A DNA stretch of 64,000 bases from Gemmatimonadota bacterium. Its GTDB lineage: Bacteria; JBHIER01; G020348925. The translations under genes and the position numbers were made by a program. The notes beneath the pieces were generated by a model that was not told the DNA's origin, searched no databases, and saw nothing but the letters and a program-made list of their open reading frames with translations. Location: positions 1,382,469-1,446,468 of the forward strand of contig CP070758.1 of assembly GCA_020348925.1 (NCBI GenBank), given 5' to 3'. Below are positions 1,853-54,419 of this stretch, one piece after another; the stretch's first letter is position 1; each line of letters starts with the position of its first letter.

Positions 1853-2130
1853 GATGAGAACTACTGATATGTAAAGGGAGGAATTGTGTGAGTATCAATT
1901 ACTCTGATTTTCTATAAGGCACTCGATATTTCTGGAGAAATACTTTATCCGTAAGTCATCCCAAAAATACTTGTCAGCTGCTGTATATATTCCGAATAAT
2001 TAAATAATTTGAAATCCCCCAATGTTGCACTCTAGAAGGCGAAACATATATTCAATTCTTGTTTTATATCTCCTTGGTAAACAATACTATTTTTGAGATA
2101 TATATTTATTATGCATGATAGGATTACAAT

Positions 2131-4338: not shown

Positions 4339-4466
4339 AGAGATAGACTCAAAAGAAAAAACAGATTCGCTTTATTTAAAAAGGCTATTCATGGTAAAAA
4401 GACGAGCATGATTTTTATCAATTTTGGTTGAAATAGTGAGTTTTTAAGAAAAATCCAAAGTGATGA

Positions 4467-4544
4467 TTATCTTTGCCTGGCATGAACATCCAGACCAAGA
4501 AAAAAATCTTGACCTGAAAAATCTATACCTTTACTTGTACACAT
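4467..4544 (-). pseudogene. IS110-family transposase N-terminal remnant (25 codons)
   Basis: AGGAGG RBS, then MCTSKGIDFSGQDFFLGLDVHARQR*, which matches the IS110 RuvC-like start motif (x-G-L/I-D-V-H). It stops immediately afterwards. Confidence 0.6.
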
Positions 4545-4588
4545 GGGAGTCCTCCTTTCTTTGTGAGTGTTTTGAATCCAATAAATAT

Positions 4589-4688
4589 NNNNNNNNNNNN
4601 NNNNNNNNNNNNNNNNNNNNNNNNNNNNNNNNNNNNNNNNNNNNNNNNNNNNNNNNNNNNNNNNNNNNNNNNNNNNNNNNNNNNNNNN
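4589..4688. other. Assembly gap (100 N)
   Basis: Run of N. Confidence 1.
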
Positions 4689-4774
4689 CCCGGTTCGATC
4701 CGGGGCGGCCTTCCGGCCTGGTTGTGTGAGAGGTATAAGAGCTTGGAGCGAACCTGAGGGTTCGTTCCAGAGAG

Positions 4775-4815
4775 AAGAGGCCCCTGGGACCTGGAGGTTC
4801 GAGGGGTCTTTTTTT
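4775..4815 (+). terminator. Probable intrinsic terminator
   Basis: AAGAGGCCCCT...AGGGGTCTTTTTTT: GC-rich stem followed by a T-tract. Confidence 0.5.
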
Positions 4816-5072
4816 GTGCTCGCAATGACAGGCATAACGGCGTCCGGGTTCGCAGTGACAGGCATGGAGAAGAGAACGGAACGGTTGCATTTCACAAAAA
4901 GCTGAAGAGAACAGTTTTTCCTTGACAGTGCACCTTTTTTGCTTATTTTTGCATAGTTCGTGATGTGTGAAGCTTCGCAGACACATCCTGGAATTGAATG
5001 GGAAATACAATGACTCGGTACGAGGTCGATGAATTGATAGGTATGCGGACCTGATTGGCGGGGAGGGACGTG

Positions 5073-10637: not shown

Positions 10638-10677
10638 TGGATATGATGAGTGCGGTTGGTCTCTTGCGGGAATCAGA

Positions 10678-13600
10678 ATGAAGAAGAATCGTCGCACAGT
10701 TCTCTTTGTTGCACTGACGTCCCTCGTTCTCCTTGCCGGATTGGATGCGACAGCCGTTGTTGTCACCGTTCCGGATACGACCCTGCGGACAGGCACATCA
10801 TTTTTGCTCCCCATTCGAGTGGATCAACTCTCGGACAGAGGTATCATCGCCTATCAGTTTCGGCTGGAGTTTGACGCCGACGTGCTCAGGATGGTGGGGG
10901 TGGAGAGGGAGGGGTGCTTGGGGAATCAGTGGGGTGAACCGACTGCGAATATGAGCATACCAGGGACCATTATCGTGGTTCAATACGGTATTGCTCCCCT
11001 TTCAGGAAGCGGCGATCTCATCAAACTGGAGTGTGACGTCATCGGGAATCCCCGCGATACGACGCAGCTGTCCTTCGATTCGTTCGTCTTCAATGACGGC
11101 GAGCCTCAGGCCGAGATGACAGATCCCGTGGCCATCTTCACCGTGACCTCCACGGGGGTACCCATTCTGGCTGTCTCTCCGGATACCATTGACTTCGGCG
11201 CATTGGATACCTTGAGATCCTTCTCCGTTGCGAACGAAGGCGTCGGAGACTTGAACTGGAATGTTCTTGAGGATCCTGATATACCCTGGATTGTGACCGT
11301 TGACCCCTTGTCCGGAGCTTCTGACGATACGGTGACGGTGACTGTCTCCCGCGAGGGCATGAGTTTCGGATTTTATTCAGGGCTTCTGACGGTTCAATCC
11401 GATGGTGGGCGAAGGGGGGTTGTTGTGAAAATGACCGTTCCTCAAGAATTTTTCATAGTGTCCGTCACCGTTCCCGATACGTCCCAGTACACGAGCCGGT
11501 GGGTGGAGCTTCCTATCATGCTTGATGATGTCACGGACATGGAAATTATTGCCTATCAATTTGCCCTCCGCTATGATGCGGATGTGGTGAATATTGTCGG
11601 GGCCACGACGCACAATTCTTTAAGCGCAGGCTGGGGGGATGCGGAGGTGAATACCGATACCACCGGTCAAATCGGCGTGGCGCATTATGGGGCGACACCT
11701 CTCTCCGGCGAAGGGACCCTCATCTCCCTTATCTGCTATGCCGTGGGCAATCCTGGTGATGCCACGGCTCTCAGTTTCGATCGATTTCTGTTCAACGACG
11801 GATACCCCCACGCGGAATGGACGACACCTGCGGCCACCTTTTCGGTCGACACGGCGGATGTGCCCCTCATTTTTCTATCGCCCTCAGTCCTCGACTTCGG
11901 GACGACGCAGACCGTGAACGCGTTCAACATCCGCAATGTCGGTACCGACACCCTGAAGTGGGCTGTTTCCGAGGATCCTGAGGTGGAGTGGATCACTTCC
12001 GTTTCGCCACGCTCCGGTGTGGGGGAAGGGACTGTTACTGTCGCGGTCAGCCGTATCGGCCTGGCGCCGGGTCTGTACTCGGGGAAGGTCTCGGTCACAT
12101 CGAACGGCGGCGACGGAAGCATCACCGTGGCCCTGTCAGCGCCTGATGGGGGTCGACGCGTCCGTCTGTCGTTGCCGGACACCAGCGGAGCGGTCGCCAG
12201 TGAGCTCATAATTCCTGTCAGGGTCAATGATGTGTCCACTTTCGGCATTGTCGAATTTGAGTTAACACTCCTCTATGATGACGGCGTCTTGGAGGTTCTC
12301 GAGGCCCTCTCGGGGATGACGCTGAGTGCTGTCTGGGGACCACCCACATGGGACAGTCCCGCACCCGGTCACGTTCGCGTTGTCCATCAAGGACAACCGC
12401 CCTTGACCGGGAGCGGAACAATCGTTGGTTTCAGAATACGGGCCATTGGAGATCCTGAGAATACCAGTGAGTTGCGTTTTTCGAACGTGCTCATGAACGG
12501 GGACGCCGGTGTTTCCCAGTACAATACGCCGGCCGGCCTGTTCACGGTAGAACGTCCCGATTACCCTGTCCTTTCCGCAACACCGCTTTCCCTCGATTTT
12601 GGATCCGAGGCCACGACGAGGAATTTTTCCATTCGGAATGTCGGATCAGGCACACTTCGCTGGTCCATCTTCGAAAGCCCGGAAAAGAATTGGATCGTTT
12701 CAATATTTCCCACGGACGGCCAGAATCAAAGAACTGTGACGGTCATTATCGATCGAGCATATCTCTACCCTGACGTCTATACCGGGACATTGCACATCGC
12801 ATCGAACGGGGGGAATCAGAACATCAGCGTGCGGATGGAGGTTGTGGCGAGCGATACACTTCCACCCTATTTGGCCTTCAGCAGTCCGCAACATCATGCC
12901 GTCGGTATGGCCCGAAACATGCCCGTCTTCGTCATCATTGACGATGAGGACTCCAGCGTGCTTCCGAGCAGTGTGGGCGTTACGGTGGATTCGGATACCA
13001 TTGTGTCAGAGGGTGAGGATCGTACGGCCGGGGCTGTTCGATTCGTACCAAGGAACCGGGGAATAAGTCTTGTGTATACTCCCCTGACGCTGTTTGACGA
13101 GAACTCTGAGGTGGTGATCTCTCTGACTGCCGAGGACACAGCGCTTCCTTCTCGTGTGTATGAGGGATCCTTTTCCTTTACAACCGGCTCCGCGACGGTG
13201 GAAGTTATTGCGGAGGCACTGTTGGCGTCCGAGGGTGGGACCGTGGATGATCCGGACGGTGTGTTCGTCACTTTACCCCCGGGTGTTCTCGCGGATAGTC
13301 TGACGGTTCTCGTAGGCACGGTGACGGCCCCACCGCAGCTCCCGGACTCACTGCTCTCCGTCGGCAGGACCTCTTTCTTCGGACCCGAGGGTCTGACCTT
13401 TTGCCCCTTACCCGGAGTAGGGCGGCTTGTTTACACTGACGAGGATCTCGCAGAAGCCGGAATTGTTGATGCCTTGGGCCTGATGGTTTTTTCTTTCAAC
13501 TCTGAAAGCGGAGGGTGGGAAGAACGGCAGATTTTAAGCAATGATACCAACAGCGGGACCATCCTCTTTCAGATCTGTCGACTCGGGTATGTCACCCTGG

Positions 13601-13959
13601 CCATCGCCCAGACGACCTCGGTTCAGGACGAGCGGAGGGATGAACGGATTCCCCTCACGTACCGTTTCATGTCCTGCCAACCCAACCCTTTCAACCCAAC
13701 AACGTCCCTTCCTTTCCATATTCCTGACGTCCGTTTCCCTGTGGAGGTCACCCTTCGCATCTACAATGTACTCGGTGAGGAGATCCGTACTCTTATTCGG
13801 CAGCGACTTCCCGGAGGCCGGTACACAGCGATCTGGGATGGATGCGACGGGAAGGGTAGGGATGTGCCCAGCGGAGTCTATTTTTGCAGGATGTCGGTGC
13901 AAGATGAACAGGGTTTCGAGGTCTTCGTCCAGACACAGAAAATGCTCTTCTTGAAATAA
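10678..13959 (+). CDS. Secreted scaffoldin-like protein: 3x (cohesin-like + BACON-like), Ig-like and ZU5-like domains, FlgD-Ig/T9SS-like C-terminal domain
   Basis: Signal peptide MKKNRRTVLFVAL... Three modules 'PDT...(L/I)P(I/V)...I(IA/VE)(YQF/FEL)...(F/Y)D.xV...PL(S/T)G.G' alternate with 'SP..LDFG...F.(I/V).N.G...L.W...W' BACON-like modules. C-terminal PNPFNP...KMLFLK. Confidence 0.85.
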   Translation: MKKNRRTVLFVALTSLVLLAGLDATAVVVTVPDTTLRTGTSFLLPIRVDQLSDRGIIAYQFRLEFDADVLRMVGVEREGCLGNQWGEPTANMSIPGTIIVVQYGIAPLSGSGDLIKLECDVIGNPRDTTQLSFDSFVFNDGEPQAEMTDPVAIFTVTSTGVPILAVSPDTIDFGALDTLRSFSVANEGVGDLNWNVLEDPDIPWIVTVDPLSGASDDTVTVTVSREGMSFGFYSGLLTVQSDGGRRGVVVKMTVPQEFFIVSVTVPDTSQYTSRWVELPIMLDDVTDMEIIAYQFALRYDADVVNIVGATTHNSLSAGWGDAEVNTDTTGQIGVAHYGATPLSGEGTLISLICYAVGNPGDATALSFDRFLFNDGYPHAEWTTPAATFSVDTADVPLIFLSPSVLDFGTTQTVNAFNIRNVGTDTLKWAVSEDPEVEWITSVSPRSGVGEGTVTVAVSRIGLAPGLYSGKVSVTSNGGDGSITVALSAPDGGRRVRLSLPDTSGAVASELIIPVRVNDVSTFGIVEFELTLLYDDGVLEVLEALSGMTLSAVWGPPTWDSPAPGHVRVVHQGQPPLTGSGTIVGFRIRAIGDPENTSELRFSNVLMNGDAGVSQYNTPAGLFTVERPDYPVLSATPLSLDFGSEATTRNFSIRNVGSGTLRWSIFESPEKNWIVSIFPTDGQNQRTVTVIIDRAYLYPDVYTGTLHIASNGGNQNISVRMEVVASDTLPPYLAFSSPQHHAVGMARNMPVFVIIDDEDSSVLPSSVGVTVDSDTIVSEGEDRTAGAVRFVPRNRGISLVYTPLTLFDENSEVVISLTAEDTALPSRVYEGSFSFTTGSATVEVIAEALLASEGGTVDDPDGVFVTLPPGVLADSLTVLVGTVTAPPQLPDSLLSVGRTSFFGPEGLTFCPLPGVGRLVYTDEDLAEAGIVDALGLMVFSFNSESGGWEERQILSNDTNSGTILFQICRLGYVTLAIAQTTSVQDERRDERIPLTYRFMSCQPNPFNPTTSLPFHIPDVRFPVEVTLRIYNVLGEEIRTLIRQRLPGGRYTAIWDGCDGKGRDVPSGVYFCRMSVQDEQGFEVFVQTQKMLFLK

Positions 13960-42588: not shown

Positions 42589-43701
42589 ATGTACCGGATC
42601 ACTGTCAACGTGTTTTTCATCATATGTTCTCTCTTTCTGATTCAGCCGACTGGGGAGGGCTGCTCAATTTTTACGCTCTCACACGGATCCGAGACCGTGT
42701 ACGGTCAGAATCTCGATTGGCATAGGCCGCTGCCCGGTCTCGTTGTGGTGAACAGGCGCGGCGTTGAAAAAACGGTTCTCCATTGGAAGGGGCATTGGCC
42801 GGCGGCAGGGGAGAGGGAGTGCGTGTCCTGGATTTCGCGCTACGGCTCGGTGACCTTTACGTGTTACGGCCGTGACTTTATTGAAGGCGGGATGAACGAG
42901 GTCGGTCTCATGGTGGATGAAGCCAGCCTTTTTGGAGTCTACCCGCAGGACGATGGCAGACCGGGTGTATCCTGTGCGCAGTGGATGCAGTACCAGCTGG
43001 ACAATTTTGCCGGTGTGGGTGAAGTGCTCGAGCATTTGAATGATCTCCGGCCCGACGGTGAGGGGTGGCATTACTTGATCGCCGACAGCAGTGGAGCCTG
43101 TGCCGTCATCGAGTACCTGAGCGGTGAGGCTCTCTTTTACACCGGCGATTCCGTGGACGTGTGCGCACTGACGAACACGACCTACGCGCAGGCTCTCAGC
43201 CATGTACCGATGGATAGGGCTTTCGGAGGGGAGCTCGACATCGCCTCCGGCAGCGATTCATACGGACGTTTCGTTCGTTTGGCGGCGTTGCTCAGGAATT
43301 ATGATCCGGCCCACGATGGCAGCGCTGCCGACTACGCGTTCCACATGCTGAAGGAAGTCAGTGTCGAGGACACCCGTCGCTCGGTGGTCTACGATGCCGG
43401 GAAAAAGAGGGTCCTGTGGAAAACGGAAAAGAATCCGCAGGTGCGATGGCTCGATCTCGGTGAGCTTGATTTCTCACAGGATTCATCAACGAAAATTGTC
43501 GATGTCGACGCTGACGGTGTCGGGAATGTGAAAACCCAACTTCAGGATTATACGCTCGAGGCAAACCGGGCTGTTGTTAAGGCAATTCTTGGCTCCGGGA
43601 GTCTCAGTACGGCAACCGGTCAGGAATTGAAGTCACGTGGATTCACCCTGGAAGAGGTCGTCGAACTCATCACCCGCCATCCCACCAAAGACATTCGTTA
43701 G
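42589..43701 (+). CDS. Secreted linear amide C-N hydrolase (choloylglycine hydrolase / penicillin V acylase family)
   Basis: Signal peptide, then the N-terminal nucleophile 'CSIF', GQNLDW, GMNEVGL, WMQYQLDN, HYLIAD and RFVR. Confidence 0.85.
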   Translation: MYRITVNVFFIICSLFLIQPTGEGCSIFTLSHGSETVYGQNLDWHRPLPGLVVVNRRGVEKTVLHWKGHWPAAGERECVSWISRYGSVTFTCYGRDFIEGGMNEVGLMVDEASLFGVYPQDDGRPGVSCAQWMQYQLDNFAGVGEVLEHLNDLRPDGEGWHYLIADSSGACAVIEYLSGEALFYTGDSVDVCALTNTTYAQALSHVPMDRAFGGELDIASGSDSYGRFVRLAALLRNYDPAHDGSAADYAFHMLKEVSVEDTRRSVVYDAGKKRVLWKTEKNPQVRWLDLGELDFSQDSSTKIVDVDADGVGNVKTQLQDYTLEANRAVVKAILGSGSLSTATGQELKSRGFTLEEVVELITRHPTKDIR

Positions 43702-43806
43702 AATATGATTCATATGTTCGAGATGATAAGAAAAATCAACCCTTCTCTCATTCCCAAACTCTGTTTCCTCCTATTGTGTGTATCGCTTTTGCCCATTCAC
43801 GTTTCT

Positions 43807-43838
43807 ACGCATCGACGCATTTACGCATACACGCATTT
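43807..43838 (+). repeat. 8-bp tandem repeat (ACGCATnn x4)
   Basis: ACGCATCG ACGCATTT ACGCATAC ACGCATTT, immediately upstream of the intI promoter. Confidence 0.7.
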
Positions 43839-43843
43839 ATTTC

Positions 43844-43872
43844 TTGACTTTTACCCCAGAATAGTATATGCT
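43844..43872 (+). promoter_or_regulatory. sigma70-type promoter of intI
   Basis: TTGACT-N17-TATGCT. Confidence 0.55.
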
Positions 43873-43902
43873 TACCACGCTTAGATAACCGAAAAACTCA
43901 TT

Positions 43903-44254
43903 ATGACATCTCATTTGTTAATGACGGAATTTCCCTTGGAAAGAATCCCGAATATTGAACGAGCTGGCATACTCGTTCGAAAAGCGAAACTATTGGATCA
44001 GATGAGGCAAGCTCTGCGATCCCGCCATTACGGCCGCCGGACCGAGCAGACGTATTGCCAGTGGGTGAAGCGGTTTGGGAGTTTGGAGTCAGAGTCCAAA
44101 TTTTCTCATGGTTGAAACAATAAGGCTGCAGATAATTAGAGTCAAGCGGAGACTTGACCCCTTTGAAGACCCCTTTGAACATACTCATGTTCTCAATCGA
44201 GGTGGAAAGGGAGTAAAAAGCCCAATGGATGGTTTGAAGAGTGAACAAAAATAG
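43903..44254 (+). pseudogene. intI: Integron integrase with internal deletion
   Basis: 43903-44076 encodes the IntI N-terminus 'KLLDQMRQALRSRHYGRRTEQTYCQWVKRF'. 44183-44254 encodes the IntI C-terminus 'THVLNRGGKGVKSPMD'. The catalytic core is replaced by about 104 bp of unrelated sequence. Confidence 0.9.
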
Positions 44255-44257
44255 CCA

Positions 44258-44413
44258 TGTCTTATACAGACCGTATAAGACACAATGGAGTCTGAACATT
44301 AAAACGGAACACATTATGGTTCCAATGACTTAGGACACAAATAACCGAATAGTCTTATATAGCTGAAGCTCATGCGGAGCTTTCTTATACAGACTGTATA
44401 TTCATTGTTGGGC
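44258..44413 (+). promoter_or_regulatory. Putative attI region
   Basis: Ends in the G|TTGGGC core site (44407-44413). An 18-bp direct repeat TCTTATACAGACYGTATA lies at 44260 and 44383, with a partial copy at 44352. Confidence 0.65.
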
Positions 44414-44522
44414 AACTTAGCGAGGTGCACCCATTGAACAGCCACAGTCCGATTCATCCCAGAGATGTGCCGACTCCGTTCTTTGTGCTATTGGAGACGA
44501 TCTGAAGCATTTCTTCATTCCG

Positions 44523-45275
44523 ATGGTCGGTCTCCAAGTAACAGTATCTCCACCCACGGCGAACGTGCTCGGATCGGGCACGCTGGTCAAGGTTGCGCGC
44601 GAGTCCTTCATTCTGACCGCAGCCCACGTTTGGGAGTTTGCTCAGGCATACCCGTCCATTGGACTGGTCCGGGTTGGCTCACCCTCCATCGTTACCGTGA
44701 GACGCGATTTCATTGTCCCGCAAACCCTGGGCCGGGCGCCATTCGGCGAATGGGGGCCCGACTTGGCACTCCTCAAGATTCCTTATCCCGACTCCGGCAC
44801 TTTGCTAGCGAGACAGTCCGCTCTAGATCTCGTCGCGGAACGTGGAAGTACACCAGCTCATCCACCCAGCAGCGATGCAGGCTTCTGGGTCACGCTCGGT
44901 GTGGTCGCTGAGCGCAGTGACATCGCGTTTGACCTTACTGAGCGTGAGATGTCCATAACAATTGACGGTCCACCGAGTTTCTCTCCTCGGGCGGTGCTAC
45001 GGCAGAACGGTGCATTTGACTATCGTGACGTATCATTCGATCCAGGGATCTCATTCAACCCACAAAGTCATGGGGGAACAAGCGGTGCAGGCCTCTGGTT
45101 GGTCCCTTTGTCCCGCGACGCGAATGGCACCGTGGTCTGGCGAGGTGCGAGGATCTTCCAGGGAGTAGCATTCTGGGAGCAACGAGAGTCCCCTGAAGAT
45201 GGGTTCATTCGATGCCATGGAGCGGACAGCCTCTTCAAGGTCGCGTGGGAAACATGGGGGTTGCCCAACAAGTAA
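44523..45275 (+). CDS. Cassette 1: trypsin-like serine protease
   Basis: GSGTLV, ILTAAHV (His), DLALLK (Asp), GGTSGAG (Ser). The stop lies within attC1. The frame is open from about 44421. Confidence 0.75.
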   Translation: MVGLQVTVSPPTANVLGSGTLVKVARESFILTAAHVWEFAQAYPSIGLVRVGSPSIVTVRRDFIVPQTLGRAPFGEWGPDLALLKIPYPDSGTLLARQSALDLVAERGSTPAHPPSSDAGFWVTLGVVAERSDIAFDLTEREMSITIDGPPSFSPRAVLRQNGAFDYRDVSFDPGISFNPQSHGGTSGAGLWLVPLSRDANGTVVWRGARIFQGVAFWEQRESPEDGFIRCHGADSLFKVAWETWGLPNK

Positions 45276-45361
45276 ATGCACCCGACAGCCGCTGCCTCGC
45301 CAGAAGATCAAGACGTTTGATTGCTAGGTGGTTGCTGCTGCGGGTGATTTGCAGGTTAGCT
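45263..45361 (+). mobile_element. attC site 1
   Basis: R'' GCCCAAC ... R' GTTAGCT. L'' AAATGCACCCG vs L' CGGGTGATTT leaves an extra G. GTTGCCCAAC is the reverse complement of the cassette start GTTGGGCAAC. Confidence 0.92.
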
Positions 45362-45382
45362 ACACGGCAATAGGATAAAGAG

Positions 45383-46372
45383 ATGAAATTCACCGAAATT
45401 CAAGATGCACTTAGAGACATTGGATGGCGTGAGTTTGAGAGTTTCGTAGTTGATGCTCTTTGTGCAATGGATCGATTTTCGGATATTCGGCATAACAGCG
45501 TCATGGGGGGGCATCAGATCGATGTAGTCGCAGAGGAAAAGGACCCTCTGTCGAGCACACCAGTTCGGTGGTTATTCGAGATTAAGGCGTGGAAGAGGAG
45601 AATAGGACGAGAGGTAATAGAACGTCTACACTTCTTGAGTCAGTCACTTGGTGGATCACCACACGGACAACGCGTCGTACTGGTATGCAACATCCCGCCG
45701 ACTAAAAGCGCAGCAATGATGGCACGACAGTTCGGGATTGAAATCTGGGACCCTCTGAAATTAATTGAGCTAGTCCCCTCACAAGTGTTACAGAAGTACT
45801 TTGGAAGTGACGCCTCCAGTGCCTTGCCGGATAGAGAGAGTGAGACTAAGACGCGAGCGTTTCATGAGTCTCTTAGTAAGCTGCGTCCAGGCCGGAATGA
45901 TTGGTTTTCTTACCAACGACTCGTTTCCGAGATGTTCGAATATCTGTTTTGCCCACCACTTGAGTCTCCACGTGACGAAGTACCAGATGCTGATGCTCGA
46001 AATAGACGAGATATTATTCTTGAAAACGGGGCACCAGATGGATTCTGGAGTCGCTTGAGAACCACTTACGCTGCTGATTTCGTTGTTGTATATGCGAAGA
46101 ACTACGTTGCACCGCTCAAAAAAACGCCAATACTTGACGTTGCGCATTACCTTAAGCCGCACGGTTGCGGGATGTTCGCGATAATTGCTTCTCGTTCTGG
46201 CGCTGGTCCCTCTGCGATCCATGCTGTAAGAGAACAGTGGATAGCATCACGTAAAATGATACTTGTACTTGATGATCAAAATCTGAAGGACATGATTGAT
46301 CTGAAGCAAGAAGCTGGTGATCCGGAAGATTTACTTAGACGTCATATAGCTGAATTTCGTATGTCGTTGTGA
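45383..46372 (+). CDS. Cassette 2: restriction endonuclease (Mrr-like domain plus a second PD-(D/E)xK-like domain)
   Basis: 'WREFESFV...IDVVAE...FEIK' and 'RRDIILEN...VVYAKNY'. Confidence 0.8.
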   Translation: MKFTEIQDALRDIGWREFESFVVDALCAMDRFSDIRHNSVMGGHQIDVVAEEKDPLSSTPVRWLFEIKAWKRRIGREVIERLHFLSQSLGGSPHGQRVVLVCNIPPTKSAAMMARQFGIEIWDPLKLIELVPSQVLQKYFGSDASSALPDRESETKTRAFHESLSKLRPGRNDWFSYQRLVSEMFEYLFCPPLESPRDEVPDADARNRRDIILENGAPDGFWSRLRTTYAADFVVVYAKNYVAPLKKTPILDVAHYLKPHGCGMFAIIASRSGAGPSAIHAVREQWIASRKMILVLDDQNLKDMIDLKQEAGDPEDLLRRHIAEFRMSL

Positions 46373-46378
46373 CTCGGT

Positions 46379-46438
46379 AGCTAACAAGGCAAATTCAGCC
46401 GACGCAAAAAGCCGCGCGGCTGATTAGCACCGTTAGGC
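46379..46438 (+). mobile_element. attC site 2
   Basis: R'' AGCTAAC ... R' GTTAGGC. AATTCAGCCG vs CGGCTGATT leaves one extra base. GTAGCTAAC complements the cassette start GTTAGCTAC. Confidence 0.92.
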
Positions 46439-46483
46439 CGATTTTATAGATTTATATCCTGATATAAGCAGGAGGAGATAACA

Positions 46484-47296
46484 ATGGAAGTTAAACAGGT
46501 AAAACTCATCTATTTTTCACCTACTGGAACCACTCAAAAAGTACTGGAAAGTATCGCTGAAGGTATCGCTGTTGAAGATGTCGAGCATATTAATTTCACA
46601 CTTCCGGAGGGAGCTCAGCAAATCATTCCACCATTCTCAGATGAACTCGTCATTATAGGTGCGCCTGTTTACGGTGGCCGTCTTCCAGTTGATGTAATCA
46701 AACGATTCAAACAGTTGAAAGCAAGCAACACCTTGGCGATTATCATCGTTGTATATGGGAACCGGGAGTTTGAAGATGCGTTGTTAGAATTAAAAAATCT
46801 TGCACTTGAGTTGGGCTTTAGTCCGGTTGCCGGTGGTGCATTCATTGGGGAGCACTCTTTTGCAACAGAGGAGGTCTCCATCGCAAATGGACGTCCGGAT
46901 AGCCTGGATGTACAAAAGGCAATAGATTTTGGAGTAAAAGTTAAAGATAGAATCACAGCGTTACAATCACCTGATGCCCAAATTGATTTGGATATTCCCG
47001 GCAGATTTCCATATGAAGCAGACGGAGCGCGAGCTATGGCTGTTTCACCAGTGACCAAAGAAGACACATGCACAGTTTGTGATACGTGTGCCAGTGTATG
47101 TCCAACTGCAGCCATTTCAATTAATGAGAGCGTGGCAACAAAAATCGAGCTATGCATCCGCTGTTGCGCTTGCATTAAATACTGTCCCGAAAAGGCAAGG
47201 GTCATGGAAGACGAGATGTGGAAAAATATTGCCAACTGGTTAAATGAAAATTGCAATGCTCGGAAGGAACCTCGAATTTTTGGGGTGGATCTGTAG
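46484..47296 (+). CDS. Cassette 3: flavodoxin-fold + 2x[4Fe-4S] ferredoxin protein (EFR1-like)
   Basis: YFSPTGTT, PVYGGR, YGNREFEDAL, CTVCDTCASVCP, CIRCCACIKYCP. Confidence 0.88.
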   Translation: MEVKQVKLIYFSPTGTTQKVLESIAEGIAVEDVEHINFTLPEGAQQIIPPFSDELVIIGAPVYGGRLPVDVIKRFKQLKASNTLAIIIVVYGNREFEDALLELKNLALELGFSPVAGGAFIGEHSFATEEVSIANGRPDSLDVQKAIDFGVKVKDRITALQSPDAQIDLDIPGRFPYEADGARAMAVSPVTKEDTCTVCDTCASVCPTAAISINESVATKIELCIRCCACIKYCPEKARVMEDEMWKNIANWLNENCNARKEPRIFGVDL

Positions 47297-47334
47297 GATC
47301 CAATTTTGTAAAGTTCTTGTTCGTCTAGCATATG

Positions 47335-47393
47335 GCCTAACAATGCCTTCGAGGCGACGTCCTAAAGGCCGCGCCTCAAGGCAGGCGTTCGGT
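47335..47393 (+). mobile_element. attC site 3
   Basis: R'' GCCTAAC ... R' GTTCGGT. GCCTTCGAGGCG vs CGCCTCAAGGC leaves an extra C. GGCCTAAC complements GTTAGGCC. Confidence 0.9.
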
Positions 47394-47418
47394 GCAGAGG
47401 AAATCTGCGAAACTTGAC

Positions 47419-47447
47419 TTGACAATAGCTTGGAATGTAATTACATT
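47419..47447 (+). promoter_or_regulatory. Cassette-internal promoter with palindromic operator
   Basis: TTGACA-N17-TACATT. A perfect 14-bp palindrome AATGTAATTACATT (47434-47447) overlaps the -10. Confidence 0.75.
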
Positions 47448-47453
47448 GTATCT

Positions 47454-47486
47454 ATGAAAACAACGATCGTCAGAATTGGCAATTCG
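47454..47486 (+). CDS. Cassette 4: AbrB/MazE-family antitoxin, N-terminus only (truncated by gap)
   Basis: MKTTIVRIGNS, leaderless after an autoregulated-type promoter. Confidence 0.7.
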
Positions 47487-47586
47487 NNNNNNNNNNNNNN
47501 NNNNNNNNNNNNNNNNNNNNNNNNNNNNNNNNNNNNNNNNNNNNNNNNNNNNNNNNNNNNNNNNNNNNNNNNNNNNNNNNNNNNNN
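47487..47586. other. Assembly gap inside the cassette array
   Basis: Run of N. Confidence 1.
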
Positions 47587-47880
47587 GAAGATTGTCAAGT
47601 TTGTTTTTGAACAAAAGCATATTTGGAATTTTTCAAGAATCGACCGTTTCGTAATGAAGCTGTAAGCCTTGCTCGTGTGGTATATAAGTCAAAACATTTG
47701 GTTCGGTTCTTTTCAAAGAGTCCGCCAAACAACATCTATTACTTTCGCTTTTGTATTTTTAAAGGAAACGTAAAAAATGTTGTTTGGCTTTGTGTGGAGC
47801 ATCACCATCTGGTTGCTTCAGCACGTAATTTTCGTAACGTGCATCACTCAGCATTTAGTTGCATTGGCTTACGTCCGTTG

Positions 47881-48014
47881 CCCTAACTTTTGTTGCACCG
47901 GAATGTAGGACAGCTTTTGAAATCCAGAAAAATTTGTGCAATAATTAAAATTCTATACTTTCCGGAACGAACGGTGCGTTGATCGCCCTATATCCGGTGA
48001 ACATCACGTTATGT
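47881..48014 (+). mobile_element. attC site 4
   Basis: R'' CCCTAAC ... R' GTTATGT. TGTTGCACCGGA vs TCCGGTGAACA leaves an extra G. Confidence 0.85.
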
Positions 48015-48057
48015 CATAAAAACAATATACTTATGGAAATATAAGGAGATATATAAG

Positions 48058-48663
48058 ATGAGAAAATGTTTGGCATTTTTAATAATTCTATTACCACTAT
48101 TGATACATTTATCAATCGATAATGCTTTTTGTCAAACTGAACGAGAGCAGTGGCAGCCCCCAGAACAAATTATGGATTCAATTGGCGTAAAACCCGGAAT
48201 GATAATAGGTGAACCTGGAGCAGGACGTGGGTATTTTACCTTTCATCTTTCAAAGAGAGTTGGCGAAAAGGGTAAAGTCTATGCAAATGACATATCTCGT
48301 AGTAGTTTAAATGAAATCGATATGCGTGCAAAAAGAGAAGGGATAAATAATATTGAAATCGTATTAGGAGAAATTGAAGACCCTTTGTTCCCAGTAAAAG
48401 ATCTTGATATGATAATAATGGTATATGTATTACACATGCTTGATAAACCATTATCTTTTATGGAAAATATTAAAAAATATATGAAAGATGATACACCTTT
48501 GGTTATCATCGAGAGAGATACTCATAGGGAACGTGCACATCCCCCTTCTTTTATGACGAAAAAACAGATATTAGAAAGTCTTCAAAAGACAGAATATGAA
48601 TTAGAAAGGGTAGAAACATTCTTGCCAAGAGATACTATTTATATTTTTAAATTAAAGAAATGA
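48058..48663 (+). CDS. Cassette: class I SAM-dependent methyltransferase with signal peptide
   Basis: N-terminal hydrophobic signal, WQPPEQIMD, GEPGAGRGYFT, VYANDI. Confidence 0.85.
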   Translation: MRKCLAFLIILLPLLIHLSIDNAFCQTEREQWQPPEQIMDSIGVKPGMIIGEPGAGRGYFTFHLSKRVGEKGKVYANDISRSSLNEIDMRAKREGINNIEIVLGEIEDPLFPVKDLDMIIMVYVLHMLDKPLSFMENIKKYMKDDTPLVIIERDTHRERAHPPSFMTKKQILESLQKTEYELERVETFLPRDTIYIFKLKK

Positions 48664-48689
48664 TCCTATCAATAAATATAATTTTGAAG

Positions 48690-48815
48690 CCATAACAACT
48701 GGCTGTAGTGGATTTAAAAAATCTTAGTTGTTTTGAGAACGTCAGCTTTACTGGAATTACATTTTCAATTATGATTGACGTGCAGTTTTTAAACCACTGA
48801 GCCATTACGTTATAA
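48690..48815 (+). mobile_element. attC site 5
   Basis: R'' CCATAAC ... R' GTTATAA. TGGCTGTAGTGGATTTAAAAA vs TTTTTAAACCACTGAGCCA pair with extrahelical bases. Confidence 0.85.
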
Positions 48816-48848
48816 CTTTTATAGTATCAATATTAATGGAGTATAGTA

Positions 48849-51845
48849 ATGATTCCTAAATTAAGAATCTTATTCATATGCTGGTTATTTATTTCTATTA
48901 TGATCCAATTACTCCTCGCACAGATCTCACCTTTATCGGAAAACATTTTTCCTGTGAAACAAAAAATCACATCTACTGAATACAAAATACATAAACCAAA
49001 ACATTTAGAAAAAATTCCTCCGGCACTTTATACAAAAACAGACTGGAAAGAGATCATTGACTCGACATGGGGCGCAGGATTATCGACTACCGAGAATTTG
49101 ACTATTTTTGATAAAGCCTGGAACGACATTGATCAAAGATATGGGGCATTCATGAATATATCTATTAACATAGATTCACTAAGAGATTTATATCGACCGG
49201 AGATAGAAGCAGGTGTTAGCAGGGGAAGATTTGCGGCAATATTAAATCACCTGGCGTTTGCTCTCAAGGATGCGCACACACTTATTGAATATATGCCGGT
49301 AAACGTATTTACAGATATTCAACCAGGGATACCTCTTTTTGTAACTGGTGCTTGCGTAGATATAAGCCGCTTTGGTGCAGGTTTAACACCGTTGCCGGAT
49401 AGCACTCTATTAGTTTACAAAGCACTTCCAAACCATACATTGGGGCTGCAACCCGGTGATATTGTTTTAGGTTATGATGGTGTACCCTGGAAACGACTGT
49501 ACAAACAATTGTTAGATGCGCAATTACCATTAAGGAATACACAAATGGGAAGCAATGATGAATCTGCAATACATATATTATTGCAAAGCGCCGGGTTAAA
49601 CTGGCACCTGTTTGATACAATTGACATTTTAAAGTATGATTCAGGAGATACAATCCATTTGCAAACCGCCTTATTACTAAATCAAAGTGGCAACATTTGG
49701 GGAAATGAACAACTGCCCATACCTGGGGTTGCTTTTCCCGACGTATATAATAATGATTTTGTAAGCTGGGGGATTGTTGAAGGTACGACAATCGGTTATA
49801 TTTATGTATGGAGTTGGTTCCTGGATTCTGATGTAAGCGCACAATTTTATGATGCTGTTTATAATATTATGTTTAATTATGAAACCACTGGTTTAATTGT
49901 TGATTTTAGAGTGAATTATGGTGGGGACATGCGAGTGGCGGATGCAGGCTATTCGCTTTTATTCAATGAAACACTCCAAAAAATTGCGTTCGATAACCGA
50001 GGTGATCCCGGTAATCATCTCGATATGGTACCTTCCACAACCCACCCTACGTATCTTTGGACAATAAGAGGCGATCCCGAAACGTTTTATGATAAACCGA
50101 TAGCTGTTTTAACAGGTCCGAATGCGTTTAGTAATGGTGACTGGGAATCAGTAAGAATGCAATTTCATCCCATGGTTCGTACATTTGGTAAATCGACAAA
50201 CGGTGCATTCACTATTAATGAAAGACGAGATCTGGGGAATTCTGATTTTATGTTTTGGCTGTCTACAGGCAGTGGCTACCTCATTGAAGGACATGAATAT
50301 ATGGCTCATCGGAGCGCGAATATTGACGAAAGGATTTGGCTGATGCAGGAAGATGTGGCCAGGGGCAGGGACACGGTGGTCGAAGCGGCCATCGCCTGGA
50401 TCGGCAATCCCTATTACCTTCGCGCGGATTTCGTCGCCGATCAGATCACCGGTCACGCGCCCCTGACGGTGAATTTCACCGACCAATCCTATGCCGTCCC
50501 CACCACCACGGCCTGGTCCTGGGATTTCGATGGTGACGGCGCCATGGATTCGTATGAACACAATCCCACATGGACCTATCTGGAGCCGGGAACCTACACC
50601 GTTTTCCTGGAGACATCAAACAATTCCACCTCCGATACCTTCACCCGGGAACAGTACATCAGCGTTTTTGACGGCGAGAGCGCCCTCCGGTTCGATAATG
50701 AGAACAGCTACGTGCTCTGCCCCGCTGACACCGGACTGAATCTCACCGATACCTTTACGCTTGAAGCCTGGATCCGTCCCGAAGGATGGGGTGAATTTCC
50801 CACCCTGGGATACGGACGGATACTGGACAAGACATATCTGGCCCTCTATCTCATCGGCTCAAATCCCGCTGTCAACAATCACAGCCTGGCGATACAGTTC
50901 ATGCATGCCGACAATTCCACCAGTTTCATGACCTCTCCCGAGGGCTCCATTGAACTCGATACCTGGCAGCATATCGCCGTGACTTACGACGGCGCCGCCG
51001 GCATGGTTCATTGCTATAAAGACGGCATTGAGCAGGAGATCTCATTTACCGGTATGCCCTCCGGTGCCATCCGGGACAACGGCGCAAGCGACCTGTATAT
51101 CGGTAGCAATCCGACCGGAAGTTACACTTTCGACGGCGTCATGGATGAGATCCGGATCTGGAATGTGGTTCGCACGGCGGCGGACATTTCGGACCACATG
51201 GATTCGTATCTGCTGGGAGATGAAGCCGGGCTCCTGGCTTACTGGAACATGAATGAAGGAAGCGGGGATATCCTGACAGATGAAACCCTGGGTGAGCATG
51301 ACGGCATGGTGATAGATGCCGACTGGATCCAGGGGCTGCATCTGGATCCGCCCTCCCTGGACGACGATGGAGACGGGATCCTTGACGTCGAAGATAACTG
51401 CCCGATCGTCTACAATCCCGGGCAGGAGGATACCGACGGCGACGGACCGGGTGATGCCTGCGATAATTGCCCTCATGTGTACAATCCGGAGCAGGAGGAC
51501 GCCGACCATGATACAACGGGCGATCCCTGCGATGACTGTACCGATACCGATGGCGACGGCTTCGGCGATCCCGGCTACACCGCCAACATCTGCGAGGAAG
51601 ATAACTGTCCCCAGGTATTCAATCCCGACCAGGAGGAAATCGCCCGGGGAGACATCGACTGCGACGGCGGCGTCAATGTTCTGGATGTGCTGGGAACCAT
51701 CAACCACATCTTAGGCACAACACCCCTCATCGGTGCCCCCCTTGACAGAGGCGACTGCAACGGTGACGGAGGCATTGACATCCTGGATGTCATCGGCATA
51801 GTAAACATCATTCTGGGTATCTCCCTCGAATGTTCAGGGGGATAG
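48849..51845 (+). CDS. Secreted S41-family peptidase + PKD + LamG + TSP3 repeats + dockerin
   Basis: LKDAHT, PDZ-like '[13 protein letters not shown]', [39 protein letters not shown] '[13 protein letters not shown]...WSWDFDGDG'. LamG 'WQHIAVTYD...DEIRIWN'. TSP3 'DNCP...NP.Q.D'. Dockerin '[14 protein letters not shown]...[14 protein letters not shown]'. Confidence 0.88.
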
Positions 51846-52072
51846 GGACCATGAGACTAGGGGTCACCTATGAAAAAGTTGCAACTGTGGTTGATGAGTA
51901 ATCTTAAATTATCATAATAAATCCTGTTGTCAAGTCATTCTTCTTCATTCTTTGACAGAGATCTGGTCCAATACAGTCTCATAGGACTATTCGTCAGTCA
52001 CCTATTCGTGCTCGAAGCACAGTATGTTGTTGGACACCGGCTGCGCAATCAGACATAGAGAACCTCTTCGGG

Positions 52073-52447
52073 TTATGACCCTATGGCGCTAACCGGTGTG
52101 TTCTTCAGGATGGGATATTCTTGAAAAGACTGATTTCTCTTTAGTATATAATAGATGGTTTCAAGCATCGTTCTATCCACAGTGATTCTGGTCGCATTCT
52201 TGCCATGCTTGTAGCAGACCCGATTGTATAATTGTTCATAACGAAGAGAGCCTTTCACGGCATGATGAGAGTATTCGATCAGGATCCATCTGAGCCATTT
52301 TGAGCCTTGTTTCGTAATGTATCCCCGACGGACTTTCCCTCCGAAGGCATGAAGAGATGGTACCACTCCTCCGAAGGAGCACAGTTGGCCGTGAGAGGGA
52401 AAGCGGTGAACGGTTCCGATCTCCGAGACGATGAGCAGCTCTGAATA
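52073..52447 (-). pseudogene. IS110-family transposase C-terminal fragment
   Basis: 'LIVSEIGTVHRFPSHGQLCSFGGVVP...GGKVRRGYITKQGSKWLRWILIE' (Transposase_20-like). No N-terminal DEDD domain. Confidence 0.85.
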
Positions 52448-52525
52448 CTCTTTTTCGTGAAACAAACAGGTTCTGTCGCCTGTCCAATTGGCACTGTGAT
52501 CCGAACAACCCACAAAGGAGATACC

Positions 52526-53950
52526 ATGAAAACGAAATCTCTGCTATTTCCGGTTCTGGCTGCTTTGATTTGCTCTGGATTCTTTTCAATCGCAAGGGGA
52601 AGAATCGATGAATCAGCAGGCACATATTTCGGTCAAACGCCACCGGGAATGACGCCGGTGGTCTTCGCCCCCGGCATTGTTTCAACTGCCGGTGAGCATG
52701 AAGCATATATGGTCGTCTGTCCTGGAGAGAACACGGTATACTACTGTGTGTTAACCCCAAGCGGCAATCAACTGACCAGTACGATTGTTTTCAGAAACTT
52801 CGTCGATGGCTCCTGGACGGATATGGAAGTTGCTCCCTTTTCAGGCACCTATTGCGATGGATATATCGCCCTTCATCCCGATGGTTCCCGGTTGTATTTT
52901 CAGTCTGATCGACCTATCGATCCGTCTGAATCGCACTACACCTATAACATCTGGTTCGTGGAACGGGAAGGAGATTCATGGGGAGAGCCCCAATCGATGG
53001 GAAGCCCGATTAATGGTCGCGGTGATGTCTCGGGACCGTCCGTCACAATGGACGGAACGATGTATTTTACGCTCATGACGAATGGGTTTCGGATCCAGAC
53101 ACTGTATCGGTCAGAGTATATCAATGGAGTGTATCAGGAGCCTGAAAGGCTACCGGATATTGTCAACAGCGCCAACCAACAGTTCGATTCTTATATATCA
53201 CCTGATGAGAGTTTCCTGATCTTCGGCAGCTACCTGCGGCCAGACACTTACGGCGGTACGGATCTGTATGTCGCATTTCGAGATGAAAATGGCAACTGGA
53301 GCAATTCCATAAATTTTGGCCCGCCTATCAGTACGACTATGGATGAAGGGACGGCAACGATCACAACGGACGGAAAATACATATTTCCCAATGCTATGAA
53401 TCCCGACAACGGAAAACTTGATGTCTACTGGGTTGATGCTTCCGTTGTCAATGGATTCCTGCAGGTCGAGATGGTGGAAAAGGAATTGAGTCAGGGGACC
53501 CGGGGCTGCCCGTACACCGACACCCTTAAGACGGTGCCCGGCACCGGGGCCAGTCCCTTCTCATGGAGTGTGACCAGCGGTTCCCTGCCCGGAGGCCTGA
53601 CGCTTGGCGAAACATCAGGAATCATCTCCGGGGAGCCTTCCGAGACCGGCACCTTTGATTTCACTGCCGGGGTCACTGATGCGCGACAGACTTCAGACGC
53701 ATGTCTCTTCACGTTGACTGTCGATCCCTATGCAGAGTACAAGGGCGATGTGAATGCCGACTGTACCATCGATGTGCTGGATGTACTGGCCGTCGTCAAC
53801 ATCATCCTTGATCTGCGAACTCCCGATGGGGACGAGATGTGGAGGGCGGACTGTAACGGCACCGGCACATGTGACGGGGACGGGACGATCAATATCCTTG
53901 ACGGACTGAAGATCATCAATGTCGTTCTGGGAACGGCTGACTGCTTCTGA
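52526..53950 (+). CDS. Secreted PD40 (TolB-like) beta-propeller + He_PIG-type Ig + dockerin
   Basis: AAAGGAG RBS and signal peptide. 'YFGQTPPG..P.VFAPGIVS', PD40 motifs 'PDGSRLYFQSDR' and 'ISPDESFLIF', Ig 'GSLPGGLTL...ISGEP', dockerin 'GDVNADCTIDVLDV...ADCNG...GDGTINILD'. Confidence 0.85.
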   Translation: MKTKSLLFPVLAALICSGFFSIARGRIDESAGTYFGQTPPGMTPVVFAPGIVSTAGEHEAYMVVCPGENTVYYCVLTPSGNQLTSTIVFRNFVDGSWTDMEVAPFSGTYCDGYIALHPDGSRLYFQSDRPIDPSESHYTYNIWFVEREGDSWGEPQSMGSPINGRGDVSGPSVTMDGTMYFTLMTNGFRIQTLYRSEYINGVYQEPERLPDIVNSANQQFDSYISPDESFLIFGSYLRPDTYGGTDLYVAFRDENGNWSNSINFGPPISTTMDEGTATITTDGKYIFPNAMNPDNGKLDVYWVDASVVNGFLQVEMVEKELSQGTRGCPYTDTLKTVPGTGASPFSWSVTSGSLPGGLTLGETSGIISGEPSETGTFDFTAGVTDARQTSDACLFTLTVDPYAEYKGDVNADCTIDVLDVLAVVNIILDLRTPDGDEMWRADCNGTGTCDGDGTINILDGLKIINVVLGTADCF

Positions 53951-54419
53951 GTGAACGTTGAGAACGAGTCGTCCGTGTGCGCCATCACGTCTCGCTGGGG
54001 TCACCCCTTCAATTTTAAATATTTGGTATCACTGGGAACCAGGTCTCAGAGTTAAGGGACACTCTTTTTAAGAAATTGGAAGACAAAGGTGTCAGGGACC
54101 TTTTTTACATAAATAAAGGAGCGGATTCTTCGTGGCATGGAGGATATGCCATACGTTTATGAATAGTCAATGTTGCTTCTGTTCTGCAAAAACAATGAGA
54201 AAGGGACAGGATTCAAAGAGGTCGGTTTAAAAGTTAAAGGCATTCGAAAGCATACCCCCGAGGCTCTCAAATAGGCTGCAAAATTATTCCCCCTAAAAGT
54301 GCAACTTTGTGCGCTTTTTCTGAACATCAGGCAGACCACATCCCCCTATCCCCCCGAACAAATCTCACAATTTCATCATGTAAGATTCAGTCTTCTCCTT
54401 TCAAAAATGGTGAGTGTTT

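Follow-up and report, generated by a model that had tools for sequence, protein, structure and literature searches.

In the fused cassettes of resistance integrons, the loss of an attC site joins two coding regions that can then no longer be excised separately, and in mosaic penicillin-binding protein genes a block of the resident gene is replaced by a diverged homologue, with sharp breaks in identity and composition. The conversion of a cassette into a permanent gene is poorly documented outside resistance integrons. Here, we describe such a case in the genome of a Gemmatimonadota bacterium (assembly GCA_020348925.1, contig CP070758.1), whose lineage is uncultured, bears a type IX secretion system (T9SS) and has few sequenced relatives; integrons have been little studied in such groups. 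The window analysed is a stretch of 64,000 nucleotides (nt; positions 1,382,469 to 1,446,468 of the contig), and all positions given without further indication refer to it. It contains a gene for a predicted exported serine peptidase of family S41 that begins at the last attC site of a cassette array and ends in a host-type tail of domains. We propose that this gene is a natural mosaic, in which the head of a cassette gene was joined in two steps to the tail of a resident paralogue, and assign this reading a probability of roughly 0.82.

Fused resistance cassettes unite two unrelated neighbours, whereas here a cassette gene is joined to its own chromosomal homologue at a homologous codon. Mosaic penicillin-binding protein genes owe both of their ends to homologous crossovers after transformation; here, in contrast, a site-specific attC junction forms the left end, and only the right one is guided by homology. 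In a survey of attC clusters that have no integron-integrase (CALIN), pseudogenes of the integrase gene intI were found near 15 of 279 clusters and neighbouring insertion sequences (IS) at 38% (Cury et al. 2016, PMC4889954). With its attC array, an intI remnant instead of a working integrase and an IS at the edge, the present locus resembles a CALIN with an intI pseudogene. It differs in that the last cassette lacks an attC and runs in frame into a chromosomal gene, an end that is not described in the part of that survey at hand. For lone attC sites without an integron-integrase (SALIN), another study proposes insertion at a secondary genomic site, followed by deletion of the attC through replication slippage (Loot et al., 10.1101/2022.09.11.507474). 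The likeness to this route of domestication lies in the fixation of a cassette gene once its attC is lost, but here the attC would have gone together with the 3' end of the gene in a homology-guided crossover between paralogues. Titles and the opening lines of abstracts in the literature yielded no description of an in-frame hybrid between a cassette gene and a chromosomal gene. The case is a known kind of process in a new setting and a well-resolved single example, since the two ends of the event are legible at the level of single bases, the left as an attC junction and the right as an in-frame crossover between paralogues. It represents one way for a cassette array to end, and a way by which a cassette can supply a host scaffold already in place with a foreign catalytic domain, without a new architecture.

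The domains of the hybrid protein (P0001) are listed in Table 1; its S41 head has the chains 4l8k (putative peptidase) and 4y68 (putative nisin-resistance protein) as its nearest solved structures. The homologues P0005 and P0006 align from residue 1 with 100% query cover, which identifies 48849 as the start of the gene. On this alignment, the public gene call (P0125, 728 amino acids (aa)), which begins at residue 271 of the hybrid open reading frame (ORF), omits the first 270 codons, including the signal peptide and the Tricorn_C1 region, and is corrected here. Por_Secre_tail, the T9SS sorting domain, is absent from the hybrid protein according to Pfam and present both in the paralogue P0004 of the same genome and in the donor-type proteins described below. 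A scan of 48600-52100 for promoters and terminators gave 12 promoter-like sites against 7.3 +/- 2.9 expected, and nothing usable.

The composition of the gene changes abruptly along its length. From the letters of the window, the original prediction had described an AT-rich first part of about 1.5 kb and a switch at about 50330-50360, and its coordinates and percentages proved correct. In windows of 200 nt, the GC content is 0.28-0.445 for 48800-50299, 0.50 at 50200-50399 and 0.54-0.615 thereafter to 51799. At third codon positions (GC3), it shifts from 0.316 to 0.685; the change point of maximum likelihood is codon 487 (nt 50310), and the likelihood stays near its peak across 50295-50340. This split raises the log-likelihood by 69.4, and none of 500 permutations gave a gain above 8.8. 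The genome, a single contig of 5,038,017 bases, has a GC content of 49.7%, and its 1751 stop-to-stop frames of at least 350 codons, which serve as background here, have a median GC3 of 0.577; 0.4% of them lie at or below 0.316 and 5.6% at or above 0.685. The right half of the gene is within the host range and the left half falls into the lowest 0.4% of long frames.

The AT-rich left half begins like a cassette. As had been noted from the sequence, the gene starts just past the crossover of the last attC site, attC5: the ATG lies 39 nt behind the crossover point in G/TTATAA (between 48809 and 48810; the slash marks the crossover). A second copy of the AT-rich sequence, which we call copy 2, is located at genome positions 4898548-4897338 and is 94% identical to window 48808-50016. 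In both places the similarity begins at the R' crossover base (CG/TTATAAC), and copy 2 sits behind a different, unrelated attC (R'' GCCAAAC). That one unit follows two different attC sites is the mark of insertion by an integrase, and on these junctions we regard the AT-rich 5' part as a genuine integron cassette. Its own 3' attC was not found, and cassette-type sequence stops at about 50336 inside the ORF; by this reading, the S41 cassette at the locus is truncated, not complete. Between the two copies (window 48849-50015 and L001 8339-9506), 67 of 1167 positions differ; at 53 of these the window copy has A or T where copy 2 has G or C, and dN/dS between the copies is 0.28. Polarised with the donor-type gene L018 described below, 41 changes are derived in copy 2 and 14 in the window copy, a count biased by the AT-rich outgroup; copy 2 may have drifted toward host composition.

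The two halves of the gene were also searched separately. For the front half, the best relatives (P0005-P0010) are proteins of about 606-624 aa that consist of an S41 peptidase and a C-terminal T9SS sorting domain (CTD type), two of them named 'S41 family peptidase [Bacteroidota bacterium]'. They resemble the hybrid at 73-87% over residues 26-493, signal peptide included, and end in Por_Secre_tail, unlike the hybrid. Among proteins of 548-1747 aa, the first 23 matches to the head are of the CTD type and tail-bearing proteins occupy ranks 24-26 at 59-63%; within the best 120 proteins of that length, a CTD-type head is combined with the tail only in the product of the window itself. The back half is closest to P0126 (1125 aa, 67%) and P0127 (999 aa, 66%), both from metagenomes, and to P0004 (1133 aa, 65%) of this genome. 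All three carry S41 and the same PKD-LamG-TSP3-dockerin tail (resident type). P0004 is collinear with the hybrid protein over 970 residues at 62% identity, and the GC3 of its gene is uniform (0.5-0.84), without a compositional shift.

Along the protein, the affinity changes within a few residues. Over residues 26-493, identity amounts to 73-87% with four proteins of the CTD type and 53-64% with three of the resident type; residues 494-503 are ambiguous for both types. Residues 504-527, still inside the region conserved across S41 homologues, are 38-46% identical to the CTD type and 88-92% to the resident type. Residues 528-998 are 63-66% identical to the resident type and have no counterpart in the CTD type, which lacks the tail. 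Relative to the residues just before the switch (441-493), identity to the resident type rises from 53-55% to 88-92%, and identity to the CTD type drops from 79-87% to 38-46%. Among themselves, the resident-type proteins have identities of 90-91% in the head and 65-74% in the tail, so a gene with such a tail would be expected to have a P0004-like head at about 90%; the observed value is 57-64%. Full-length homologues with the same architecture and uniform composition do exist, an observation that the original prediction had listed as counting against a chimera. The chimera nevertheless stands, as its N-terminal part is only 53-64% identical to these homologues, against the 90-91% that they share with each other.

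Phylogeny agrees with these comparisons. In a maximum-likelihood tree of the head (39 rows), the window head and copy 2 are paired with a support of 99 in the Shimodaira-Hasegawa-like approximate likelihood ratio test and are nested in the CTD-type clade (98); the resident-type heads group apart in a clade of their own (100). The approximately unbiased test rejects uniting the head with the resident type (delta lnL 181, p 4e-99); the tested group was named after the tree was seen, though it is the group of the hypothesis under test. Judged by alignments and tree, the two halves of the gene have no common origin.

Separate searches had been predicted to give different best matches and stand-alone, cassette-borne homologues of the head. 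Different matches and stand-alone relatives with S41 and a T9SS domain were found, but the nearest donor-type gene for which DNA is available, L018 (79% identical, 619 codons, GC3 0.27, with T9SS sorting domain), is not a cassette: it has an attC on neither side and is an ordinary chromosomal gene between other genes. L018 was the one locus obtained with the head from the metagenome collection, and the genome collection yielded only a 43% identical relative. Among 20 other genomes, only one of which is in the same family as the host, 6 have any match, to tail modules only, and none has the S41 subfamily.

A three-way DNA alignment locates the switch. The window follows the CTD-type gene L018 to about 50327 and the resident paralogue L002 from about 50345, without an insertion or deletion at the junction relative to either parent type. 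By our own count from the alignment, 48 of 53 positions just past the switch are identical to the resident paralogue. The crossover lies, as proposed at the outset, inside the last S41 motif, more specifically inside the conserved WL.QEDV, which belongs to the most conserved S41 stretch (WL.QEDVxxGxDTVVE). The motif EDVxxGxDTVVExA after the junction is kept even in 4l8k, and a 10-residue S41 stretch is kept in both parent types. Because the junction is at exactly homologous codons, it points to homology-guided recombination, and since the gene types have diverged in DNA, the stretch of identity used would have to have been short. The proposed recombination between a cassette peptidase and a resident tail-bearing gene is borne out in this respect, but the partner is not unrelated: it is an S41 paralogue of the same architecture.

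A switch of this kind could also arise in a chimeric assembly, or in a native gene whose composition varies by selection; the genome apparently comes from sediment metagenome data, and it contains a 94% identical repeat of the head. However, contigs of the Logan collection, made by an assembler independent of that of the genome, span the junction in two samples: record 7 of X1 (1971 nt) covers 49920-51890 with 5 differences and record 12 of X2 (1239 nt) covers 49596-50834 with 36. From 50017 on, the sequence over the junction occurs only once in the genome. Furthermore, the shift occurs at third codon positions, the paralogue P0004 is without it, and the two halves have discordant phylogenies. 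Both forms of this explanation are, in our view, close to negligible. The contigs answer the earlier call for a check against chimeric assembly: the junction is not an assembler artefact, although they do not amount to independent support from a second population. X3 and X5, from two other studies, contain near-identical pieces to either side of the junction, which were not counted as bridging; record 29 of X5 (49995-50359) crosses the junction by only 15-31 nt. Record 20 of X3 (163 nt) starts exactly at 50327, the first base of the crossover interval, without a difference to the window. This start could be a branch to an unrecombined allele in the sample, or chance. The alternative flank of copy 2 is also a loose end in the contigs of X1 and X2.

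The two-step history would run as follows. In the first step, an integron integrase inserted an AT-rich S41 cassette at the attC of the methyltransferase cassette; peptidases of this type usually terminate in a T9SS sorting domain, and the nearest named relatives are from Bacteroidota. In the second, a homology-guided crossover would have fused the cassette gene, at its codon ~495, with a GC-rich resident S41-PKD-LamG-TSP3-dockerin paralogue at the corresponding codon, most likely as a deletion between two directly oriented homologues on one chromosome. Such a deletion would have taken the 3' end of the cassette with its sorting domain and attC, the intervening DNA and the resident gene's own head, and would have left an intact frame, in which the cassette contributes the signal peptide and the catalytic domain, and the host the tail. 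The insertion is legible in the attC junctions and the crossover in the alignments, and from the latter we infer the mechanism of the second step. With no attC behind it and a decayed intI, the hybrid gene is no longer excisable. This agrees with the claim that it became fixed in the chromosome: the 3' end and the attC of the cassette are gone, and the genome has no intact IntI. The arrival of the head looks recent, since its GC3 of 0.32 is still near the 0.27 of the donor type. Judged by its domains, the event is a replacement of the catalytic head within an existing family and created no new domain architecture.

Instead of a deletion, a non-reciprocal conversion may have overwritten the 3' end of a complete cassette gene with a copy of the tail, supplied either by another paralogue of the genome or by DNA entering from a relative, and without any deletion of neighbouring DNA. 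At least 26 full tails in the genome could act as dispersed repeats, and there is no reciprocal product, as the genome contains no sorting domain more than 52% identical to those of P0005/P0006. Yet no tail in the genome is more than 65% identical, so the donor of a conversion is not present, and conversion needs homology on the 3' side, which is lacking in a cassette with a T9SS domain and an attC. We consider it very improbable and keep the deletion between homologues as the preferred form of the second step. A remnant of the CTD is absent within 4 kb downstream of the hybrid gene. The fourth S41 gene of the genome (L003; S41-Ig-dockerin, 52% identical) was tried as the reciprocal product and rejected.

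Downstream of the stop, a heuristic scan that recovers 5 of 7 known sites found no closing attC, in line with what had been read from the sequence. Its sole weak hit, 51879-51932, was rejected as an attC: it folds at -3.8 kcal/mol, and 21 of 200 shuffles fold as well. The surrounding region, 51846-51960, has folding z-scores of +0.45/+0.61. After 56 nt, the hybrid gene is followed by the 3' fragment of an IS110-family element (Pfam Transposase_20 on 52073-52513, E 4e-13), beside which no attC halves are recognisable. Over 51902-52447, the fragment shares 80% identity with L009, the one other copy of the element, which encodes a full transposase of 345 aa (NF033542, 199 bits, cut-off 140). The end of L009 lies in a run of N and gives no exact boundary for the IS fragment beside the hybrid gene. 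In both L009 (1473-2680) and the window fragment, a long non-coding region of at least 170 nt lies downstream of the transposase gene. We take this to be the layout of the IS1111 subgroup, some members of which target attC sites.

The IS fragment raises the question of whether the whole hybrid, tail included, was one large cassette built elsewhere, the closing attC of which was destroyed by an IS110-family insertion and decay. The fragment does lie just past the stop with its non-coding end toward the gene, an IS1111-attC group that targets attC sites appears in the literature, and there is the weak attC-like hit. That hit, however, does not fold as an attC and is partly IS sequence common to L009, single hits of the scan do not exceed chance (163 in the genome, 197 in the null), and L009 itself adjoins two ordinary ORFs, with none of the 7 mapped attC sites there. 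In addition, the GC3 of the tail is of the host type, a paralogue in the genome is among the tail's closest relatives, and even as a large cassette the gene would still be a mosaic of two lineages. We judge this origin to be quite improbable. At its C-terminus, the hybrid ends as other proteins of the genome with a terminal dockerin do, and the tail therefore does not appear truncated.

Several points weigh against the joining of a cassette head to a resident tail by deletion, or limit it. The actual parents are not at hand: the closest tail in the genome is 65% identical, and the resident partner is deduced from the family. Neither an unrecombined allele nor a reciprocal product was found, and no CTD of the genome exceeds 52% identity to that of P0005 or P0006. 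The low DNA identity of the parents near the crossover makes classical RecA-dependent recombination doubtful, and the deletion is a proposed model. Copy 2 enters a run of N after codon 389, which hides its 3' fate, and the IS110 fragment leaves room for a destroyed attC. With respect to the assembly evidence, X1 may be the source sample of the genome and X2 is from the same study. Left of 50006, the X2 contig agrees with copy 2 at 37 of 38 listed variant places, which may reflect a copy-2-like allele in the hybrid or two copies merged there. Finally, the hybrid is known from sequence alone.

The tail that the gene acquired is common in this organism. The same tail occurs at no fewer than 24 further loci of the genome at 49-59% identity (39 of 363 candidates scored). 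There are 81 cohesin matches, 73 of them over the cut-off, and at least 148 dockerin matches (150 of 527 dockerin candidates scored). A docking system plausibly exists in the organism, and the dockerin of the hybrid may bind one of its many cohesin proteins. The C-terminal Dockerin_1 in a cohesin-rich genome resembles the cohesin-dockerin arrangement of cellulosome-like systems. In contrast to their dockerin enzymes, the cargo here is a peptidase and not a glycoside hydrolase, and the tail adds PKD, LamG and TSP3. A route from the cassette pool to surface enzymes, as first suggested, would have this gene as a single case, and the hybrid lacks the T9SS signal of both parent types. Cohesin domains are matched three times (genome 1393227-1394990) in an ORF of 1155 aa at 10492-13959, which places genes for cohesin and dockerin proteins no more than 40 kb apart.

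Whether the cassette pool supplies catalytic heads to the PKD-LamG-TSP3-dockerin family, swapped recurrently within conserved motifs, is a wider idea that we hold tentatively and think rather unlikely. A possible second trace of head swapping is found at copy 2 (locus L001 5584-9610, genome 4894583-4898609, minus strand). After its run of N follows a GC-rich guanylate-kinase fragment (Pfam positions 64-128 of 182), and in the open frame of this fragment lies a MAM-PKD-LamG-TSP3-dockerin gene (P0003) without signal peptide, its own 5' end lost. Both copies of the S41 cassette are situated directly upstream, on the same strand, of a tail-bearing gene. The arrangement at copy 2 could be a coincidence or a second, failed fusion. 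The guanylate-kinase fragment was also considered as a local duplication, which was rejected because it is only 39% identical to the host gmk. The surroundings of copy 2 are rich in mobile-element genes (Table 1).

Table 1. Coordinates of features at the hybrid gene and its surroundings (window positions, residues of the hybrid protein or, for the last row, positions in locus L001).
Feature	Position	Strand	Description
Hybrid gene	48849..51845	+	998 aa; signal peptide, Tricorn_C1, S41, PKD, LamG, TSP3 repeats, dockerin; without T9SS sorting domain
Tricorn_C1	residues 81-134		Pfam
Peptidase_S41	residues 315-481		PF03572, 42.9 bits (cut-off 24), placing it in family S41
PKD	residues 535-606		Pfam
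Laminin_G_3	residues 617-781		Pfam
TSP_3	residues 838-859		Pfam
Dockerin_1	residues 934-982		Pfam, 28.8 bits (cut-off 22.9)
Truncated S41 cassette	48810..50336	+	39-nt leader, signal peptide, S41 residues 1 to ~495; GC3 0.32
Crossover interval	50328..50344	+	in the codons for RIWLMQ; in frame, homologous positions
Resident-type 3' half	50345..51845	+	last S41 helix, PKD, LamG, TSP3, dockerin; GC3 0.68; 63-67% identical to P0004, P0126 and P0127
IS110-family 3' fragment	51902..52513	-	transposase C-terminus and non-coding end facing the hybrid stop codon
Integron integrase gene remnant, internally deleted	43903..44251	+	same orientation as cassettes
Candidate attI	44260..44413	+	two copies of TCTTATACAGAC(C/T)GTATA, then crossover G/TTGGGC at 44407/44408
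Six cassettes ahead of the S41 cassette	44408..48809	+	Pfam and attC reading
Cassette ORF	44523-45275	+	weak Trypsin_2
Cassette ORF	45383-46372	+	Mrr_cat
Cassette ORF	46484-47296	+	flavodoxin/4Fe-4S
Small cassette	within 47388-48008	+	short ORF starting MKTTIVRIGNS, broken by run of N
ORF-less cassette	within 47388-48008	+	226-nt unit, no convincing ORF
Cassette ORF	48058-48663	+	SAM methyltransferase
attC sites	45263-45361, 46379-46438, 47335-47393, 47724-47788, 47881-48014, 48690-48815	+	read by eye
Contents of L001 near copy 2	L001 9878-14300		DDE_Tnp_1_4 transposase fragment; DUF4372 + DDE_Tnp_1 transposase (389 aa); large serine recombinase (506 aa)

The array in front of the hybrid gene has the parts of an integron platform. 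On its outer sides, the locus is bordered by a choloylglycine-hydrolase-like gene (42589-43701) and a PD40/dockerin gene (~52.5-53.9 kb). In the integrase gene remnant, an ORF at 43903-44115 (70 aa) has NF011946 (E 3.2e-6) and TIGR02249 (E 2.2e-5) as its top NCBIfam matches, over model positions 1-44 only, together with Pfam Phage_int_SAM_4. The stretch 44174-44251 reads FEHTHVLNRGGKGVKSPMDGL, the likeness of which to the C-terminal box of IntI was seen by eye only, with no match to a hidden Markov model confirming it. An intact IntI is absent genome-wide: the top TIGR02249 match, at 91 bits, stays below the cut-off of 265 and lacks model positions 185-241. The orientation of the remnant relative to the cassettes is presumably the less common 'inverted' integron layout. 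In the candidate attI, whose function we deduce from its sequence, GTTGGGC is the exact complement (7/7) of R'' GCCCAAC of the first attC (45263-45269).

In attC5, R'' lies at 48690-48696 and R' (GTTATAA) at 48809-48815. The bottom strands of the attC sites fold into an R-box stem, a spacer and a bulged L-box stem, with z-scores from -0.83 to -5.57. In four of six cassettes, the bases after G/TT match R'' of the cassette's own attC at 6-7 of 7 positions, as expected for cassettes made by IntI. A MAFFT alignment of the 7 attC sites was too poor for a covariance model, and the heuristic scan with a reversed-sequence null was used instead. As its single hits (about 1 per 31 kb) are no commoner in the genome than in the reversed sequence, only clusters of attC-like sites are informative. 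The sole cluster of at least three hits in the genome is the array at 45263-48815; the null has none. With 5 attC sites by the scan and 6 by eye, the array belongs to the CALIN type, defined by at least two attC sites within a few kb, and not to complete integrons, which have an intact integrase with an IntI-specific domain; the window contains only the remnant, which spans positions 1-32 of the TIGR02249 model. An Rfam scan of 43000-54000 (E <= 1) gave no match.

The short ORF starting MKTTIVRIGNS resembles an AbrB/MazE-type antitoxin by eye, and Pfam gives no match for it. The 226-nt cassette sits behind a perfectly palindromic attC (47724-47788) with R boxes matching at 7/7 positions. Far upstream of the array, another AT-rich island at 2001-5000 (GC 0.37, with flanks of 0.48-0.57) contains an ORF of 735 aa at 2131-4338.

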